Shown here: positions 7,292 to 43,640 of the stretch, piece after piece | Position numbering within the stretch: position 1 is the stretch's first letter | Layout: the number at the start of each line of letters is the position of its first letter | UHGV virus genome: UHGV-1682877 | Reading direction: 5' to 3' (one strand) | DNA length: 64,000 nt | Source: a virus | The notes under the pieces: model-generated | The model's database searches: none | What the model saw: only the letters and a program-made list of their open reading frames with translations | What the model was told of the DNA's origin: nothing | Made by a program: the position numbers and the translations under genes

Positions 7292-7342
7292 TTTTCTTTA
7301 AAAAATATAATATAATATTTATATAATAAAAGAAATAATAAG

Positions 7343-7377
7343 TTTTATAAAACTCACCAAAGGTGAGTTTTATAAAA
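7343..7377 (+). terminator. terminator-like hairpin (same core as 33550)
   Basis: aaactcacc aaa ggtgagttt hairpin. Confidence 0.45.
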
Positions 7378-7400
7378 CAAATAAGAAAGATGGGGATGAT

Positions 7401-8126
7401 ATGAAACTAAATAATTATGATTATAGATTTTTAAAAAAGTTGTTACAGTCTACACAGCATGAACTATTAGAATTTTTACCCAAAGCGCTTAATGCCATTT
7501 ACCATAAAGAAGATATTATTATTACCAATAATTATATTTGCGCTAAAGGTGATATCCCAGTAGCTTTAGTTGCTCATTTAGATACCGTATATCCAGAACC
7601 ACCTAAACAGATTTTTCATGATCCAGAATATAATATTATTTGGGGAACAAATGGTTTGGGTGCAGATGATAGAGCAGGCGTTTTTGCTATTTTAAATATT
7701 TTAGAATGTGGCTATAAGCCTACTGTAATTTTTTGTTGCGATGAAGAAAATGGCGGTTTAGGTGCTTATCAACTGACTAAAGATTTTTCAAAACCTTTCA
7801 CCAATTTTGAAATGCTTATTGAGCTAGACCGCCAAGGAACAAAAGATGCAGTATATTATTCATTAAATAACACTGATTTTGAAAATTATATCAATAATTA
7901 TGGATTTGAAACTGCGGTAGGTGTATTCACAGATATTTGTATTCTAGGCCCAATTTGGGATGTTCCCGCAGTTAATCTTTCTGTTGGTTATTTTAATGAA
8001 CATAGTTATGCGGAAATGCTTTATTACCCAGCTTTATTTGATACTATTGATAAGGTTTGTTTAATTTTAGAAGAAAAGAGGACAAAAGACTTTGAATTTA
8101 CAGAAATCACTGGAAGCAGCAATTAA
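7401..8126 (+). CDS. M20/M28/M42-type zinc metallopeptidase-like protein
   Basis: AHLDTV, GADDRAG, DEENGGLG motifs. Confidence 0.55.
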   Translation: MKLNNYDYRFLKKLLQSTQHELLEFLPKALNAIYHKEDIIITNNYICAKGDIPVALVAHLDTVYPEPPKQIFHDPEYNIIWGTNGLGADDRAGVFAILNILECGYKPTVIFCCDEENGGLGAYQLTKDFSKPFTNFEMLIELDRQGTKDAVYYSLNNTDFENYINNYGFETAVGVFTDICILGPIWDVPAVNLSVGYFNEHSYAEMLYYPALFDTIDKVCLILEEKRTKDFEFTEITGSSN

Positions 8127-31078: not shown

Positions 31079-32350
31079 TTGAACAATAGGAGAGTGGAAA
31101 TTATTATTAAATTCTACGATACTTGTAGTCTTTTATTAGCCGGGGAATCAGCTTTTGAAGATAATGAAAAATTTATCATTTCTTCTATTACTTTAAAAGA
31201 ATTAGAAAGAATTAAAACCGCGGCAAATAAAGATTCTGATATAAAATATTCCGCAAGACTTTTGCTTCATTTATTTGAAAAATATCCAAATAATTATTCT
31301 GTTAAAATTCATCAAATAAATTATGAATACATTTTAGATAAAATGAATTTTGATATTAATGATGATGCTAGAATTTTGTCTGATGCTTGGAATGAATTTG
31401 AAACAAATAAATGTTTAGAATTTATAACTAATGATTTAAGTTTAAAACATATTGCTTTATGTTTGTTTCCTAAAGAAAATGTTTCTTCTGTTGAAGAAAA
31501 TTTAGATACTTATAGTGGACTTGCAGAAATTACTGCTAGTGAAGAATTAATTTCTGAATTTTATGAAAATCCTAACTATAATCATTTTAATCTTAAAAAA
31601 GGAGAATATTTACTTCTAAAAAATCCTGATAATTTTGATGAACTTATAGATGTGCGGGTTTGGACAGGAGAGACTTATCGTTATTTAAAATTTCCTACTT
31701 TTGATTCTACCTGGTTTGGAAAAGTACAACCATATCAAGGAGATATATATCAAAAATGTGCTTTTGATAGTTTAGCTAATAATAAAATTACTTTACTACA
31801 AGGCCCAGCAGGAGTAGGAAAATCTTACATTTCTTTAGCTTTTTTAATGTATATGTTAGAAAAAAATAGAATAGATAAAATTATAATCTTTTGTAATACA
31901 GTGGCAACTATTAATTCCGCTAAATTAGGGTTTTACCCAGGTACAAAAGACGATAAATTACTTGACTCGCAAATTGGTAATATGCTTTCTGCCAAATTAG
32001 GCGGTAAAGAAGGTGTTCTTCGTATGATGGAAGAAGATAAATTAGTTTTATTGCCTTTTAGCGATATTAGAGGTTATGATACTAGCGGAATGAACGCAGG
32101 TATTTATATAACAGAAGCACAAAATTTAGACAGAACTTTAATTAAATTAGCTCTTCAACGTATTGGTGAAGATTGTATTTGTATTATTGATGGTGACGCT
32201 AAAACACAAGTTGACTCATTAGCTTATTCTGGTAATAATAATGGTATGAGAAGAATGTCTAAAATTTTTAGAGGTTCTGATATTTATGGAGAAGTAACTT
32301 TAAATAATATTCATAGATCTAAAATAGCAGAACTTGCAGAATTAATTTAA
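31079..32350 (+). CDS. phoH: PhoH-like ATPase with N-terminal PIN domain
   Basis: Walker A LLQGPAGVGKSY; PIN-like N-terminus. Confidence 0.75.
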   Translation: MNNRRVEIIIKFYDTCSLLLAGESAFEDNEKFIISSITLKELERIKTAANKDSDIKYSARLLLHLFEKYPNNYSVKIHQINYEYILDKMNFDINDDARILSDAWNEFETNKCLEFITNDLSLKHIALCLFPKENVSSVEENLDTYSGLAEITASEELISEFYENPNYNHFNLKKGEYLLLKNPDNFDELIDVRVWTGETYRYLKFPTFDSTWFGKVQPYQGDIYQKCAFDSLANNKITLLQGPAGVGKSYISLAFLMYMLEKNRIDKIIIFCNTVATINSAKLGFYPGTKDDKLLDSQIGNMLSAKLGGKEGVLRMMEEDKLVLLPFSDIRGYDTSGMNAGIYITEAQNLDRTLIKLALQRIGEDCICIIDGDAKTQVDSLAYSGNNNGMRRMSKIFRGSDIYGEVTLNNIHRSKIAELAELI

Positions 32351-32420: not shown

Positions 32421-33215
32421 ATGAATACACAGCCTGTATCTTATTTACAAACAGATGCAAGATGGAAAAATATTAGTTATTCAGCGAAAGGTGAATCAAC
32501 TACAATTGGCGCTTCTGGCTGCGGCCCCACCGCAATGTCTATGGTTTTAGCTACATGGGCAGATAAAAAAGTTACTCCAAAAACTGAATGTGCTTGGGCT
32601 TTAGCGCATGGTTATAAAGCTCCTCACCAAGGAACTTATTATGGATATTTTAAGCCTGCTGCTGCACGATACGGTTTAACAGCCTATATGTTGAATGGTG
32701 CAAATATTTATGGCAATAGTTCTAGTAAATATCATAATTTAGCAAAAGCTGAAATTGATAAAGGTAATTTAGTTATAGCTTGTATGGGCAAAGGATTATG
32801 GACAAGTAGTGGTCATTTCATTTTAGTGTGGAATATTCAAGGAAATACTATTTATATTAATGACCCTAATAGTACAAAAACCGCACGCACTAGAGGTAAT
32901 TATAGTCTTTTCAAACAACAGGTAAAATATTACTTTATAATTGAAAAACCTAAAACAAATAATAATAATAATAAACCTACAATTAAACAAGAGGAGGATG
33001 AAGACATGACTCAAGAAAAATTTAATGAAATGATGAATAATTATTTAGTTCAATTAGCTAAACAAAATGCTGATTGGGGTAAAGATGAATTAAATTGGGC
33101 AGTTTCTATGGGACTAATTAAAGGTGATGAAACTGGCAAACTAATGCCTAACAAGTTTTTAACTAGACTAGAAGGCGTCACTATAATGAAGAGATTATAT
33201 GATAAACTTTGTTAA
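32421..33215 (+). CDS. C39-like (papain-fold) peptidase with SLH-like wall-binding domain, endolysin candidate
   Basis: GCGPTAMSMVL Cys motif, SGHFILV His; C-terminal WAVSMGLIKGDETGKLMP...LTRLEGVTIM. Confidence 0.55.
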   Translation: MNTQPVSYLQTDARWKNISYSAKGESTTIGASGCGPTAMSMVLATWADKKVTPKTECAWALAHGYKAPHQGTYYGYFKPAAARYGLTAYMLNGANIYGNSSSKYHNLAKAEIDKGNLVIACMGKGLWTSSGHFILVWNIQGNTIYINDPNSTKTARTRGNYSLFKQQVKYYFIIEKPKTNNNNNKPTIKQEEDEDMTQEKFNEMMNNYLVQLAKQNADWGKDELNWAVSMGLIKGDETGKLMPNKFLTRLEGVTIMKRLYDKLC

Positions 33216-33540
33216 AAAGAATAGAAACAAAAGAAAAAAGAAAAAAGAATTTTCAAAAGTTCTTTTAGCTCAAGAATCTGCTTTAATATGGGTTCATTCT
33301 CTTGCTCATATTATTCTGGCATTTTATTGCATTCACGAAGGATTTACTGGCTCTTTGCCTTGGTTGGCTGCGGAAGCCAGTTTACCTTGGGCTGCTTATG
33401 CAGTTAGTCAAGCTTTTTATTACAATAAAGCCACTCGTGAGAATACTAAAAATGGCATAAAATATGAAACTGTGATGAATAATCTGACGCCACAAACGCC
33501 CACTTCTTCCGATGAACCGGATGTTTTTGGGCCGATTTGA
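33199..33540 (+). CDS. holin-like membrane protein
   Basis: two predicted TM helices, charged C-terminus, overlaps lysin gene end. Confidence 0.45.
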   Translation: MINFVKKNRNKRKKKKEFSKVLLAQESALIWVHSLAHIILAFYCIHEGFTGSLPWLAAEASLPWAAYAVSQAFYYNKATRENTKNGIKYETVMNNLTPQTPTSSDEPDVFGPI

Positions 33541-33549
33541 AGATTATAT

Positions 33550-33600
33550 GGGTTATAAACTCACCAAAGGTGAGTTTATAACCCTTTATTTGTTTTATTT
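33550..33600 (+). terminator. rho-independent terminator (same hairpin core as 7343)
   Basis: gggttataaactcacc aaa ggtgagtttataaccc plus T-rich tail. Confidence 0.6.
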
Positions 33601-33697
33601 TTAAAAAAATGATATAATATTATTAAAGAATAAAAGATTGATTTATTAATAATATTATACTACTTTTATTTAAGAAAATCAAAGAAGGGAGAATTAA

Positions 33698-34192
33698 ATC
33701 ATAGGTACTATTATTTACACTGATGGCTCAACTTTAAAAAATGGTAGTAAAGATGCTTCTGGAGGTTATGGAGTAGTTGTTTACAAGTATCTTAAAGACC
33801 CCAAAAATTTACATTTAGTAAATGCTTTTGCTCATCAAACTATTGGAACTACAAATAACAGAGAAGAAATGAAAGCTATTCTTTGGGCTTTGTATAACTA
33901 TGGAGTTTCAGCGGATTCTTTTACTTATCCTATTGTTTATACAGATTCTTTATATTGTGTAAATACTTTCAATGATTGGATGTACAGGTGGAAAAATAAT
34001 AATTGGCGGAAAGCAGATAAATCGACTCCTGAAAATTTGGATTTAATAAAATTTTATGATATAATATATAATAAATGGAATAGAAAGATTGATTTAAGAA
34101 AAATTAAAGGTCATGCTGGTATTGAAGGCAATGAACTTGCTGATGATTTAGCTACTGGTAGAGTGACTGTTAAGGAGGTATTGGATGAATAA
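33698..34192 (+). CDS. rnhA: ribonuclease H
   Basis: IYTDGS N-terminal motif and GHAGIEGNELADDLA C-terminal motif; no in-frame ATG before IYTDGS, probable ATC/ATA start after RBS agaagggag. Confidence 0.6.
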   Translation: MIGTIIYTDGSTLKNGSKDASGGYGVVVYKYLKDPKNLHLVNAFAHQTIGTTNNREEMKAILWALYNYGVSADSFTYPIVYTDSLYCVNTFNDWMYRWKNNNWRKADKSTPENLDLIKFYDIIYNKWNRKIDLRKIKGHAGIEGNELADDLATGRVTVKEVLDE

Positions 34193-36065
34193 TTTATATA
34201 ATAAAGATTCAATTCAAAGTCTTACTCCACTAGAATTTACAAGACTTAGACCTGGAGTATATGTTGGTTCTACTGAATATTCAACTCAGCTATTGATTGA
34301 GATTGTTTCTAATGCAGTTGATGAGTTTAAAGCAGGTCATTGCACTGAAATTAATGTAACTATTTCAGATAATAATGTAATCACAGTTAAAGATAATGGG
34401 CAAGGTTTTTTAATTAATTCCACTAGAGAAGATGGAAAAACAATTCTTGAAGCTGCTTTTAGTGTGCTTAACACTTCTGGTAAATATACTGAAGATGGTG
34501 TTTATGAAGGTACCGCGTTAGGTCTAAACGGAATCGGCAGTAAATTAGTTGTATTTTTAAGTCATTGGACAAAGGTACTTAGTTATCAAAAAGGAAATTT
34601 TGAAGAAGTTTCTTTTGAAGAAGGAATTTTCAAAAACCGCAAAACTGGTAAAGTAAAAAATGATAAAGAATCTGGTACTGTTGTTACTTGGCAAGCAAGT
34701 GAAGAATTTTTTACTCACCCAGAAGTAGATTTAAAAATTATTAATAATCTTTTTGAAGTTTTAGTTTGTTTATGTCCAGGTTTAACTATCACTTTAAATG
34801 AAAAAACTTTTTTCTCTAAGAATGGATTAACTGATTTGGTTGATTCTACTGTAGACAAAAATAGCGAAATTATTAAAAATAGACTTAAAATTGATTTTAA
34901 AGATAATAAGAATGAATTAAATTTAGTATTAACTTATACTGATAAATATTCTTCTACTATTGTTCCTTATGTTAATACAGGACTTACTGACACTGGCCCG
35001 CACATTACTCAAATTAAAACTATTCTAACAAGAGAAATGAATAAGTTTTTTAGAGATAAAGGTTGGCTAAAAGAAAAAGATAGTAATTTATCTGGTGATG
35101 ATTGCCAAGAAGGATTATATTTAGTATTTAATATTACTGCTCCTGGTATAGCTTACGACGCTCAGACCAAAAGTAGAATTGTTAAAATTGATATGCACCC
35201 TTTCGCAGGAATTATTGCACAAGAATTACAGTATTGGTTTGAAGCAAATGAAAAAGAAATAAAGAAAATCGCGGATAAGGCGATTAATGCTCGAAAAGCT
35301 AGAGAAGCAGCTAGAAAAGCTAGAGAAGCTGTTAGAGATAAGGGCAAAAAAGAAACTGGTCTTAAAGCTAAAGTTGCTTTAAGCAATAAATTTATTGATT
35401 GCACAAATAAACATCCAAGCCAGCGTAATTTGCTGTTAGTCGAGGGTCTAAGCGCAGGATCTTCTGCCGTTGAAGCACGGAATCCCAAAACAGATTGTAT
35501 TTATATGTTAAAAGGCAAAACTATTAGCCCTAGAAAACAATCTGTTGAAAAGATTCTTGCTAATCAAGAAATCTCCGATATTATTAAAGTAATTGGTGGA
35601 GGTTTTGATAAAACTTTTGATGTAGATAAAATGCAATTTGATAAAATCGTAATTACTTCAGATGCAGATTCTGATGGAGCTAGTATTGAGTTACTTTTAA
35701 CTACATTCTTTTTTACTTATATGCGACCTTTAGTCGAAGCAGGGAAGCTTTATAGAGCAGTTACTCCTTTGTACATTATTCGTCAGAAGAATAATGAATA
35801 CTATGCTTATACTGATGAAGAACTTGAAGAGTGGAAAACTCAGCATCAAGGCACTTATGAGCTAGTGAGAGCGAAGGGTTTGGGCGAGTTAAACGCACGC
35901 GATCTTCAGAAAGTCTGCTTTGAGCAAGAACGCTATAAAAGAATTACTATTAGTGATGCAGAAAAAGCAGATGAATTACTTGAAATTTTAATGGGAGTTA
36001 AAGTAGAACCCCGCAAACAATATATTTATGAAAATGCTACTGAGCTTGGTTTTACTTTTGATTAA
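34185..36065 (+). CDS. type II topoisomerase ATPase/TOPRIM subunit (GyrB/T4 gp39-like)
   Basis: LLLVEGLSAGSSAV and ITSDADSDGASIELLL TOPRIM motifs. Confidence 0.75.
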   Translation: MNNLYNKDSIQSLTPLEFTRLRPGVYVGSTEYSTQLLIEIVSNAVDEFKAGHCTEINVTISDNNVITVKDNGQGFLINSTREDGKTILEAAFSVLNTSGKYTEDGVYEGTALGLNGIGSKLVVFLSHWTKVLSYQKGNFEEVSFEEGIFKNRKTGKVKNDKESGTVVTWQASEEFFTHPEVDLKIINNLFEVLVCLCPGLTITLNEKTFFSKNGLTDLVDSTVDKNSEIIKNRLKIDFKDNKNELNLVLTYTDKYSSTIVPYVNTGLTDTGPHITQIKTILTREMNKFFRDKGWLKEKDSNLSGDDCQEGLYLVFNITAPGIAYDAQTKSRIVKIDMHPFAGIIAQELQYWFEANEKEIKKIADKAINARKAREAARKAREAVRDKGKKETGLKAKVALSNKFIDCTNKHPSQRNLLLVEGLSAGSSAVEARNPKTDCIYMLKGKTISPRKQSVEKILANQEISDIIKVIGGGFDKTFDVDKMQFDKIVITSDADSDGASIELLLTTFFFTYMRPLVEAGKLYRAVTPLYIIRQKNNEYYAYTDEELEEWKTQHQGTYELVRAKGLGELNARDLQKVCFEQERYKRITISDAEKADELLEILMGVKVEPRKQYIYENATELGFTFD

Positions 36066-43037: not shown

Positions 43038-43071
43038 AAAGTCAAGAGGATTATCCTCTTGACTTTTGTTT
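43038..43071 (+). terminator. rho-independent terminator
   Basis: aaagtcaagagga/tcctcttgacttt hairpin. Confidence 0.55.
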
Positions 43072-43100
43072 AAATATATGTTATAATATTAAAAAAGGAA

Positions 43101-43640
43101 GTGATAAAAATTGCACATAAAGTAAAATGTTTTGTGTGCGGAAGTACATTTGACCGAGATAAAGAAGAATGTATACCAATTCCTAATAAAAGAAGATATG
43201 CACATAAGTTATGTTATGAAAGATATAGTCAAAATATTGCAGAAGAAGAAAAAAACCGGATTGCTTTAGAAGAATATATTAAACAACTTTTTAATTATGA
43301 TATAATTCCTAAAGTAGTTTATAAACAAATTAAAGACTATGTAAATGAAAATCATTATACTTATTCTGGTATTTTAAAAACTTTAAAATATCATTTTGAA
43401 GTAAAAGGTGGAGATTTAGGAAAGGCTCAAGGCAGAATTGGAATTGTCCCTTATCAGTATGAAAATGCTAGAAATTATTATTATACAATTTGGGAAAATC
43501 AACAAAGAAATGAAAATAAAGAAATAGAAAATTTTATTCTGCCTACAGAAGAAATTCATATCACTCCCCCTAAAACAAGAGAGCCAATGAGAAAAAGGAA
43601 AAGATTTTTTACTTTTTTGGAGGAAGATATGAATGAGTAA
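43101..43640 (+). CDS. hypothetical zinc-finger protein
   Basis: GTG start; CFVCG ... HKLC. Confidence 0.4.
   Translation: MIKIAHKVKCFVCGSTFDRDKEECIPIPNKRRYAHKLCYERYSQNIAEEEKNRIALEEYIKQLFNYDIIPKVVYKQIKDYVNENHYTYSGILKTLKYHFEVKGGDLGKAQGRIGIVPYQYENARNYYYTIWENQQRNENKEIENFILPTEEIHITPPKTREPMRKRKRFFTFLEEDMNE

Follow-up and report, generated by a model that had tools for sequence, protein, structure and literature searches.

The window analysed here, a 64,000-nucleotide stretch of the virus genome UHGV-1682877, very probably carries a functional phage RNase HI gene that is translated from a near-cognate AUH codon behind a strong Shine-Dalgarno sequence. Its coordinates and those of the surrounding features are collected in Table 1, and the evidence for this reading is laid out in the following sections.

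An RNase H frame without a canonical start codon

The RNase H frame is preceded by a TAA stop codon (33695-33697) and opens with ATC (33698) and ATA (33701), followed by GGT ACT ATT ATT TAC ACT GAT GGC TCA; the translation of this segment is I-I-G-T-I-I-Y-T-D-G-S. The frame remains open until the TAA at 34190-34192 and comprises 164 codons counted from ATC. The earlier note had singled out this gene because the catalytic N-terminus of RNase H lies upstream of the first in-frame ATG, and this was confirmed, as the catalytic residue D9 precedes codon 58 (33869). Its claim that a canonical start codon is missing, by which we mean ATG, GTG or TTG, also holds: none of the three occurs in frame between the TAA and the ATG at 33869, which leaves 57 codons upstream of the first possible canonical start. 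According to the note, the frame runs from the stop to the motif through ATC and ATA only; both are present, but GGT, ACT and ATT lie in the same interval.

Inspection of the upstream and nearby sequence revealed no ATG, GTG or TTG in any frame that could feed the RNase H frame. The nearest other starts are a TTG at 33638, which opens an ORF of 3 codons, and an out-of-frame ATG at 33723, which opens an ORF of 4 codons. In the program-made ORF list for the window, the frame is called from 33869 only, as a protein of 107 aa, and two catalytic carboxylates (D9 and E57) are encoded 5' of this position. ATA, ATC and ATT are rare permitted starts in NCBI translation table 11.

Table 1. Positions of the RNase H locus, its candidate start codons and signals, and the YorH-like gene in the window.
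Feature	Position	Strand	Remarks
Intrinsic terminator	33550..33594	+	16-bp hairpin GGGTTATAAACTCACC-AAA-GGTGAGTTTATAACCC followed by a T-run; closes the upstream lysis-gene unit
Putative extended -10 promoter TGATATAAT	33610..33618	+	Weak -35 TTGTTT at 33590-33595 with 17-nt spacing; read from sequence
Shine-Dalgarno AGAAGGGAG	33683..33691	+	Pairing score 10.3
ATC	33698..33700	+	Directly follows the stop; alternative start of lower likelihood; aligned spacing 5
ATA	33701..33703	+	Most likely initiation codon; aligned spacing 8
RNase HI CDS	33701..34192	+	163 codons and stop if ATA is the start
First in-frame ATG	33869..33871	+	Codon 58 from ATC; internal Met in helix A (helix 52-67)
GyrB-like topoisomerase subunit gene	34185..36065	+	8-nt overlap with the RNase H stop; own Shine-Dalgarno AAGGAGGT
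YorH-like gene (PF26927; PHROG 4680)	43094..43640	+	Shine-Dalgarno AAAGGAAGTGAT at 43094-43105; ATT at 43110, aligned spacing 8

The frame is predicted to encode a complete RNase HI

Profile searches matched residues 4-153 of the translated frame to positions 4-137 (of 141) of the Pfam family RNase_H (PF00075; E=6.5e-27) and matched the protein to PHROG 531, "Rnase H" (E=4.9e-35). Structures of E. coli RNase HI were matched by sequence with E ~1e-15, query residue 6 being aligned to E. coli residue 7. Numbered from ATC, residues D9, E57, D83, H139 and D149 align with E. coli D10, E48, D70, H124 and D134 (D8, E56, D82, H138 and D148 when numbered from ATA), and all five columns are invariant across 36 aligned homologues. 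The ATA-initiated product was modelled with AlphaFold2 (pLDDT 95.8, pTM 0.91); the model has the RNase H fold including the N-terminal beta1, with strands at residues 2-12 (beta1), 20-30 and 38-48, and Foldseek aligned this model with E. coli RNase HI at TM 0.69-0.74 (E ~1e-12). The likely product is, on this prediction, a complete RNase HI of 163 aa.

The start-less frame is conserved and under purifying selection

DNA from 13 independent assemblies was retrieved from IMG/VR, ENA and Logan. The sequence ATC ATA GGT ACT is identical in all of them, and the codon before ATC varies (TAA, AAA or TGA). The assemblies represent 9 distinct alleles with 92.3-99.8% nucleotide identity to the window, and the RNase H frame contains neither stops nor frameshifts in any of these. 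Among the variable codons, codons 1-57 contribute 21 synonymous and 9 non-synonymous ones and codons 58-164 contribute 24 and 8, respectively. For codons 3-57, pairwise pN/pS is 0.07-0.19 at a pS of 0.25-0.43, the same as in the C-terminal part, and the synonymous excess is significant (binomial P between 8e-8 and 1e-4). Since all sampled lineages share the missing start, purifying selection must have acted after its loss, and selection on codons 3-57 at that stage implies that the full-length frame is translated. Judged by this substitution pattern, the N-terminal codons are shown to be translated and the start-less state to have persisted across the sampled clade. The rare-start alternative offered in the earlier note is thereby supported, with purifying selection acting on the 57 upstream codons that encode catalytic D9 and E57 and beta1-beta3.

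The start region itself is less informative. Within the leader, variation is greatest in the spacer AATTAA, the 6 nt that precede ATC (3 of 6 positions), and A-ATC-ATA-GGT-ACT is invariant. The clade is shallow, with at least 92% nucleotide identity, so an unchanged ATC ATA says little by itself; as a rough estimate from the observed divergence, four consecutive codons would escape synonymous change by chance with a probability of ~0.13.

A protein search against a database of 5.8 billion clusters returned as best matches three truncated calls of 139, 127 and 107 aa with 94-99% identity, followed by the next match at 64%. The 107-aa call corresponds to NCBI entry DAQ93863.1, "MAG TPA: ribonuclease HI [Caudoviricetes sp.]". 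Two protein clusters hold 33 variants called in the clade, all of which are truncated (70-152 aa) and none of which reaches the catalytic Asp. In some relatives, gene callers picked GTG or TTG starts that are synonymous changes within the frame (e.g. codon 26, GTA to GTG; codons 13 and 38, TTA to TTG). GenBank phages were searched at the nucleotide level without a match, so that there is no curated annotation to draw on. A DNA-pattern scan of viral contigs and JGI metagenomes, in which the start codon was left free, yielded no contigs beyond those already known, and in a scan of genome contigs for a host or prophage the RNase H matches did not exceed 41% identity and gave no clue to the host.

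The canonical start was lost within the clade

Sister phages offer a view of the ancestral state. The 127-kb contig L021 is syntenic (PIN-PhoH, lysin, small ORF, RNase H, GyrB, GyrA), and its RNase H gene starts with ATG in an ATGA overlap with an upstream ORF of 52 codons that is located downstream of the promoter (L021 2340-2503). This ORF is missing from the window, and its loss may be linked to that of the canonical start. The RNase H gene starts with TTG in L022 and with ATG in L002 and L020. Among the best 120 homologues, three are the truncated calls from this clade and the other 117 have ordinary N-termini, with the catalytic Asp located 5-6 residues from Met in 96 of the 117. With canonical starts in these four contigs and ordinary N-termini in the 117 homologues, the non-canonical start is derived and confined to this clade, and on this comparison it is within the clade that the canonical start was lost.

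Leader and operon context

The ORF upstream of the RNase H gene (113 codons) stops at 33540 and is followed by the intrinsic terminator, the sole terminator-like site in 33000-34600, which is kept in relatives. The TGATATAAT site downstream of it is invariant among relatives. The extended -10 motif TGNTATAAT occurs 23 times in the window, compared with 9 expected occurrences, and mostly in intergenic regions on the + strand. Read in this way, TGATATAAT would act as a promoter from which the transcript starts near 33625. The presence of a terminator and a promoter upstream excludes coupling of RNase H translation to another ORF.

The Shine-Dalgarno sequence of the gene ranks within the top 9 of 68 window genes by its pairing score. 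It is a 9-nt match, with one G·U pair, to a Bacillota-type anti-Shine-Dalgarno; both the anti-Shine-Dalgarno and the start-codon stringency of the host were assumed to be Bacillota-like. In the relatives L001, L016 and L017 the sequence is the perfect AGAAAGGAG. The earlier note had placed a good ribosome-binding site 7-10 nt before ATC and ATA, which is accurate: 6 nt intervene before ATC and 9 nt before ATA. The predicted leader of ~75 nt has no significant RNA structure (z = 0.44 compared with shuffled sequence), and an Rfam scan found tRNAs only, with no match in the RNase H leader. A leader that is no better folded than shuffled sequence and lacks an Rfam match gives no indication of a riboswitch or structured leader.

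Given the terminator and promoter upstream and the overlap with the GyrB-like gene downstream, RNase H is the first cistron of a replication operon. The predicted operon order is RNase H, GyrB-like and GyrA-like, the last being assigned by synteny with L021.

Several neighbouring features vary between relatives. The hairpin core CTCACC-AAA-GGTGAG is found in two long intergenic stems of the window (33550-33584 and 7337-7383), with 0 expected by chance. Its 3-nt loop is AAA in the window, L012 and L016 and TTT in L001, L009 and L015, regardless of relatedness, suggesting that the palindrome has flipped or recombined more than once. In L016 (1913-3420), the GyrB-like protein is called at no more than 427 aa, with a GIY-YIG endonuclease ORF behind its gene, while the window gene is intact (626 aa); a strain-variable insertion of a homing endonuclease or an intron may account for the L016 layout. 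In L014 (84-1172), a single call of 362 aa spans the lysin and the 113-codon ORF behind it, the two frames being fused. The lysin of the window contains an SLH domain.

ATA is the more probable initiation codon

Spacing was determined by aligning the 25 nt upstream of each start to AGAAAGGAGGTGATC and was measured from the last G of GGAGG. In the 69 window genes with a clear Shine-Dalgarno sequence, which start with ATG (55), TTG (13) or GTG (1), the spacing is 6 in 12 genes, 7 in 16, 8 in 8 and 9 in 12, so that 48 of the 69 fall within 6-9; a spacing of 5 is found in 2. The aligned spacings of the two candidates are 8 for ATA 33701 and 5 for ATC 33698. Two further near-cognate codons, ATT 33710 and ATT 33713, have spacings of 17 and 20, outside the range seen in the phage's own genes. 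With a one-codon insertion, ATA-GGT-ACT-ATT aligns to ATG-ATT-ACG-ATT of the sister contig L021, in which case ATG would have changed to ATA by a single transition. In twelve large genes of the window, isoleucine is encoded by ATC 39 times, by ATA 78 times and by ATT 482 times; the rarity of ATC and ATA fits with these triplets of the start region not being ordinary Ile codons.

Initiation at AUC 33698 would produce a 164-aa protein beginning M-I-G-T through the same mechanism, and we consider it a credible second choice that is distinctly less likely than not. It would use the first codon after the stop, the variation of the leader ends exactly at ATC (a slight point), and the contig L002 has its Met 8 residues ahead of the catalytic Asp, as would be the case for ATC. 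In a position-weight model of the phage initiation regions, ATC scores marginally higher than ATA (7.3 vs 6.8); the model does not separate the two, and both are in the top 15-20% of real genes. Against AUC stand its spacing, which is shared by just 2 of the 69 genes compared with 8 at the spacing of ATA, the single transition and alignment that connect ATA with the ATG of L021, and the spacing of 8 at the parallel ATT of the YorH-like gene described below. The initiation codon is therefore most probably ATA 33701, which takes well over half of our confidence within the near-cognate explanation; ATC receives a much smaller share, and what is left falls to the use of both codons or of another one. 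The predicted N-terminal peptides are (M)GTIIYTDGSTLK for the ATA start and (M)IGTIIYTDGSTLK for the ATC start.

A parallel case in the YorH-like gene

All + strand ORFs of the window were scanned for a strong, well-spaced Shine-Dalgarno sequence before AUH or CUG in the absence of an equally good canonical start. Only two ORFs were flagged, RNase H and 43074-43640. The latter contains the YorH-like gene, which sits upstream of a DnaB-like helicase gene and, like RNase H, is preceded by a terminator (~43040-43073) and a promoter sequence, TGTTATAAT (43079-43087). YorH homologues begin M-A-H-K-V-K-C, with Met exactly at the position of the ATT, and the first Cys is at index 6 in 53 of 120 homologues, matching an ATT start. 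About 15 of the 120 have Ile at the Met position together with an upstream start chosen by the gene caller. Four such loci, from lineages that are 38-56% identical, read AAGGA-GTG-NNN-NNN-ATA/ATC/ATA-GCA-CAY; the divergent lineages thus carry ATA, ATC or again ATA at the start position after AAGGAGTG-N6.

Gene callers start the YorH-like gene at a GTG inside the Shine-Dalgarno sequence. This in-frame GTG (43101) abuts the Shine-Dalgarno core and remains a formal canonical alternative to ATT 43110; the region is invariant in clade relatives at both positions. The recurrence of the AAGGA-GTG pattern in divergent lineages identifies the GTG as the tail of the Shine-Dalgarno sequence. Across 46 distinct IMG/VR YorH start regions, the start is mostly ATG and in several cases TTG or GTG, with ATT found in this clade only; the homologous start is TTG in SPbeta and GTG in the Mammaliicoccus phage phi6255. 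As read from these start regions, the comparison shows that the combination of a strong Shine-Dalgarno sequence, 8 nt and AUH recurs within this phage group, and the ATT of the YorH-like gene at spacing 8 in turn supports ATA as the start of RNase H.

Two other loci were considered and rejected. The PhoH-like gene at 31079 appeared as a third AUH case (ATT after AGGAGAG), and its relatives begin M-N-N or M-N-Y, which matches TTG 31079. The ORF at 7311-8126, with a leader of 30 codons, simply starts at ATG 7401.

The YorH CDS of phi6255 (L195, PV389083.1; 301-822) is annotated in GenBank from 355, and homology, including the first CxxC motif, extends from GTG 301, so that this protein is annotated ~18 residues too short. 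A literature search on YorH and on ATA, ATT and ATC start codons found nothing useful for phages.

Other explanations for the missing start

A decaying gene, or one from which only the 107-aa C-terminal fragment is made from ATG 33869, would agree with the absence of a canonical start and with the product given by gene callers and NCBI (DAQ93863.1). We regard it as improbable. No Shine-Dalgarno sequence is found upstream of ATG 33869, and the fragment would begin within helix A, without beta1-beta3 and without the catalytic carboxylates D9 and E57. The 9 alleles are free of stops and frameshifts, and codons 3-57 are as constrained as the rest of the gene. The same constraint on codons upstream of ATG 33869, observed among relatives that are themselves start-less, argues against the N-terminal truncation that the earlier note had put forward as its second option.

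More improbable still, judged on the 64 kb of a ~137-kb genome covered here, is a non-standard route, in which a phage initiator-like tRNA reads AUA, ribosomes arrive by frameshifting or read-through from an upstream ORF, or the RNA is edited to AUG. The window does encode a tRNA-Ile(UAU) (10813-10888) and 16 other tRNAs. The tRNA(UAU) is of the elongator type, however, with A1-U72, C11:G24 and an anticodon stem, AGCGA/UCGCU, that lacks the run of three G:C pairs, where an initiator would have no Watson-Crick pair at 1:72, three G:C pairs in the anticodon stem and A11:U24. The tRNA(CAU) has no initiator features either, and both were rejected as initiators on these identity elements. Within genes, ATA stands for Ile, as in ENLDLIKF, whose Ile is shared with homologues. 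The sequence upstream consists of stops, the terminator and the promoter, without an ORF, and the site has no slippery run.

A sequencing or assembly error, which only the prior that rare starts are often artefacts would favour, is practically negligible: the earlier note had named an ATG revealed by a sequencing-error check as a refutation, and the same ATC ATA without an ATG in 13 independent assemblies from differing samples and pipelines (IMG/VR, ENA and Logan), at a site without a homopolymer, removes this escape.

Further features of the window

Every gene of the window lies on the + strand. TTG is a frequent start codon (13 of 69 genes), and almost all genes have a strong Shine-Dalgarno sequence. 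The YorH affinity and the genome size point to an SPbeta-like phage with a Bacillota host. In this genome of 30.5% GC, where AUA is used more often than AUC (78 vs 39 in the 12 large genes), the elongator-type tRNA-Ile(UAU) probably serves the phage's AUA codons. The tRNA(CAU) at 12179-12251 has two acceptor-stem mismatches and may be an elongator Met tRNA, a lysidine-dependent Ile2 tRNA or a pseudo-tRNA. At 13040-13112 lies a tRNA-like gene (Rfam tRNA, 53 bits) whose anticodon loop, CUUGAAAA, is 8 nt long and whose acceptor stem contains a U·U mismatch; it may encode a frameshift-suppressor-like or a degenerate tRNA.

Proposed mechanism and implications

We propose that an ATG or TTG start was lost in the common ancestor of these gut phages, which have genomes of ~137 kb, form a clade at the species level and are distantly SPbeta-like. 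The strong, unstructured Shine-Dalgarno region would position host 30S subunits, allowing the initiator fMet-tRNA to pair with a near-cognate AUH codon, probably AUA 33701, otherwise AUC 33698, or both, and the outcome would be a complete enzyme of 163 or 164 residues. Because IF3 discriminates against near-cognate codons, RNase H output is expected to be reduced, to between a few percent and tens of percent of that from AUG per mRNA. RNase H would thus be made at a low level, with the downstream topoisomerase genes translated from their own sites. Both the start codon used and the expression level are inferred.

A more far-reaching and rather doubtful possibility is that weak AUH starts are selected and not accidental: in SPbeta-like gut phages, genes heading replication-module operons would be throttled at translation by near-cognate or weak start codons, or timed by them in response to IF3 or growth state. 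Strong Shine-Dalgarno sequences would then keep the sites occupied, and the candidates would be RNase H (ATA/ATC) and the YorH-like gene, with ATT in the window and recurrent ATA, ATC, TTG or GTG elsewhere. Two observations hint in this direction: all three ATH codons recur at the YorH start in lineages that are 38-56% identical, and ATC ATA has been retained in RNase H across a synonymous divergence of ~0.3.

The near-cognate reading of RNase H has direct consequences for annotation. Every automatic annotation of this RNase H, including the NCBI record, describes a catalytically dead fragment, and the start of the YorH-like gene is hidden or distorted in the same way; limiting starts to ATG, GTG and TTG mis-annotates real phage genes. 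A natural AUA or AUC start in what is probably a Bacillota-like, Shine-Dalgarno-dependent system also provides a locus at which to gauge how far a Shine-Dalgarno sequence compensates for a near-cognate start. Finally, the locus bears on whether phages use weak starts to set nuclease dose, as over-produced RNase H could harm RNA-primed replication.

Comparison with known systems

The RNase H locus is, on the sequence evidence, a well-supported new case of known but uncommon near-cognate (AUH) initiation. At the protein level, E. coli RNase HI (rnhA) agrees with the window protein in fold, in the catalytic D-E-D-(H)-D set and in having the basic protrusion, at 34% identity over 147 residues; the RNase H of T5-like phages (e.g. 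DT57C rnhA) is ~36% identical to the window protein. Both of these genes have canonical start codons, unlike the window gene, which also differs from rnhA systems in heading a topoisomerase/replication operon in a low-GC (30.5%), distantly SPbeta-like phage. The SPbeta YorH family (PF26927) is comparable in that ATT replaces the initiator Met in the window; the protein differs from RNase H and has no assigned function.

Among bacterial genes, E. coli pcnB, which encodes poly(A) polymerase I, resembles RNase H in having a weak start on a nucleic-acid enzyme, and this weak start limits PAP I expression. It differs in its codon, AUU, and in being a host gene, and for RNase H we only infer a limitation of dosage. 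The pcnB AUU is one of two confirmed near-cognate cases in E. coli (bioRxiv 10.1101/063800). E. coli infC, encoding IF3, likewise has a near-cognate AUH codon behind a Shine-Dalgarno sequence that has been kept over evolutionary time (PMC5499595; bioRxiv 10.1101/063800). Its AUU or AUC start is used in IF3 autoregulation (PMC5499595), the weak codon sensing the IF3 level, whereas RNase H is not known to be regulated in this way, and its start is conserved across a shallow clade only.

Initiation from AUA, AUC or AUU in E. coli reaches ~1-2% of the AUG level, and N-terminal Met has been confirmed for AUC (bioRxiv 10.1101/063800); when the initiation region of the mRNA was optimised, AUA matched AUG in vitro (PMC5499595). 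Phage genes are likewise translated from AUA, AUU or AUC at a reduced level: an AUG-to-AUA mutant of T4 rIIB kept ~15% of its translation, and the hydrolase of phage HB-3, a murein hydrolase, is made at 7.5% from AUA and at 5% from AUU or AUC (PMC5499595). These rIIB and HB-3 examples are laboratory mutants and constructs, whereas RNase H has its AUH start naturally, in every sampled member of the clade.
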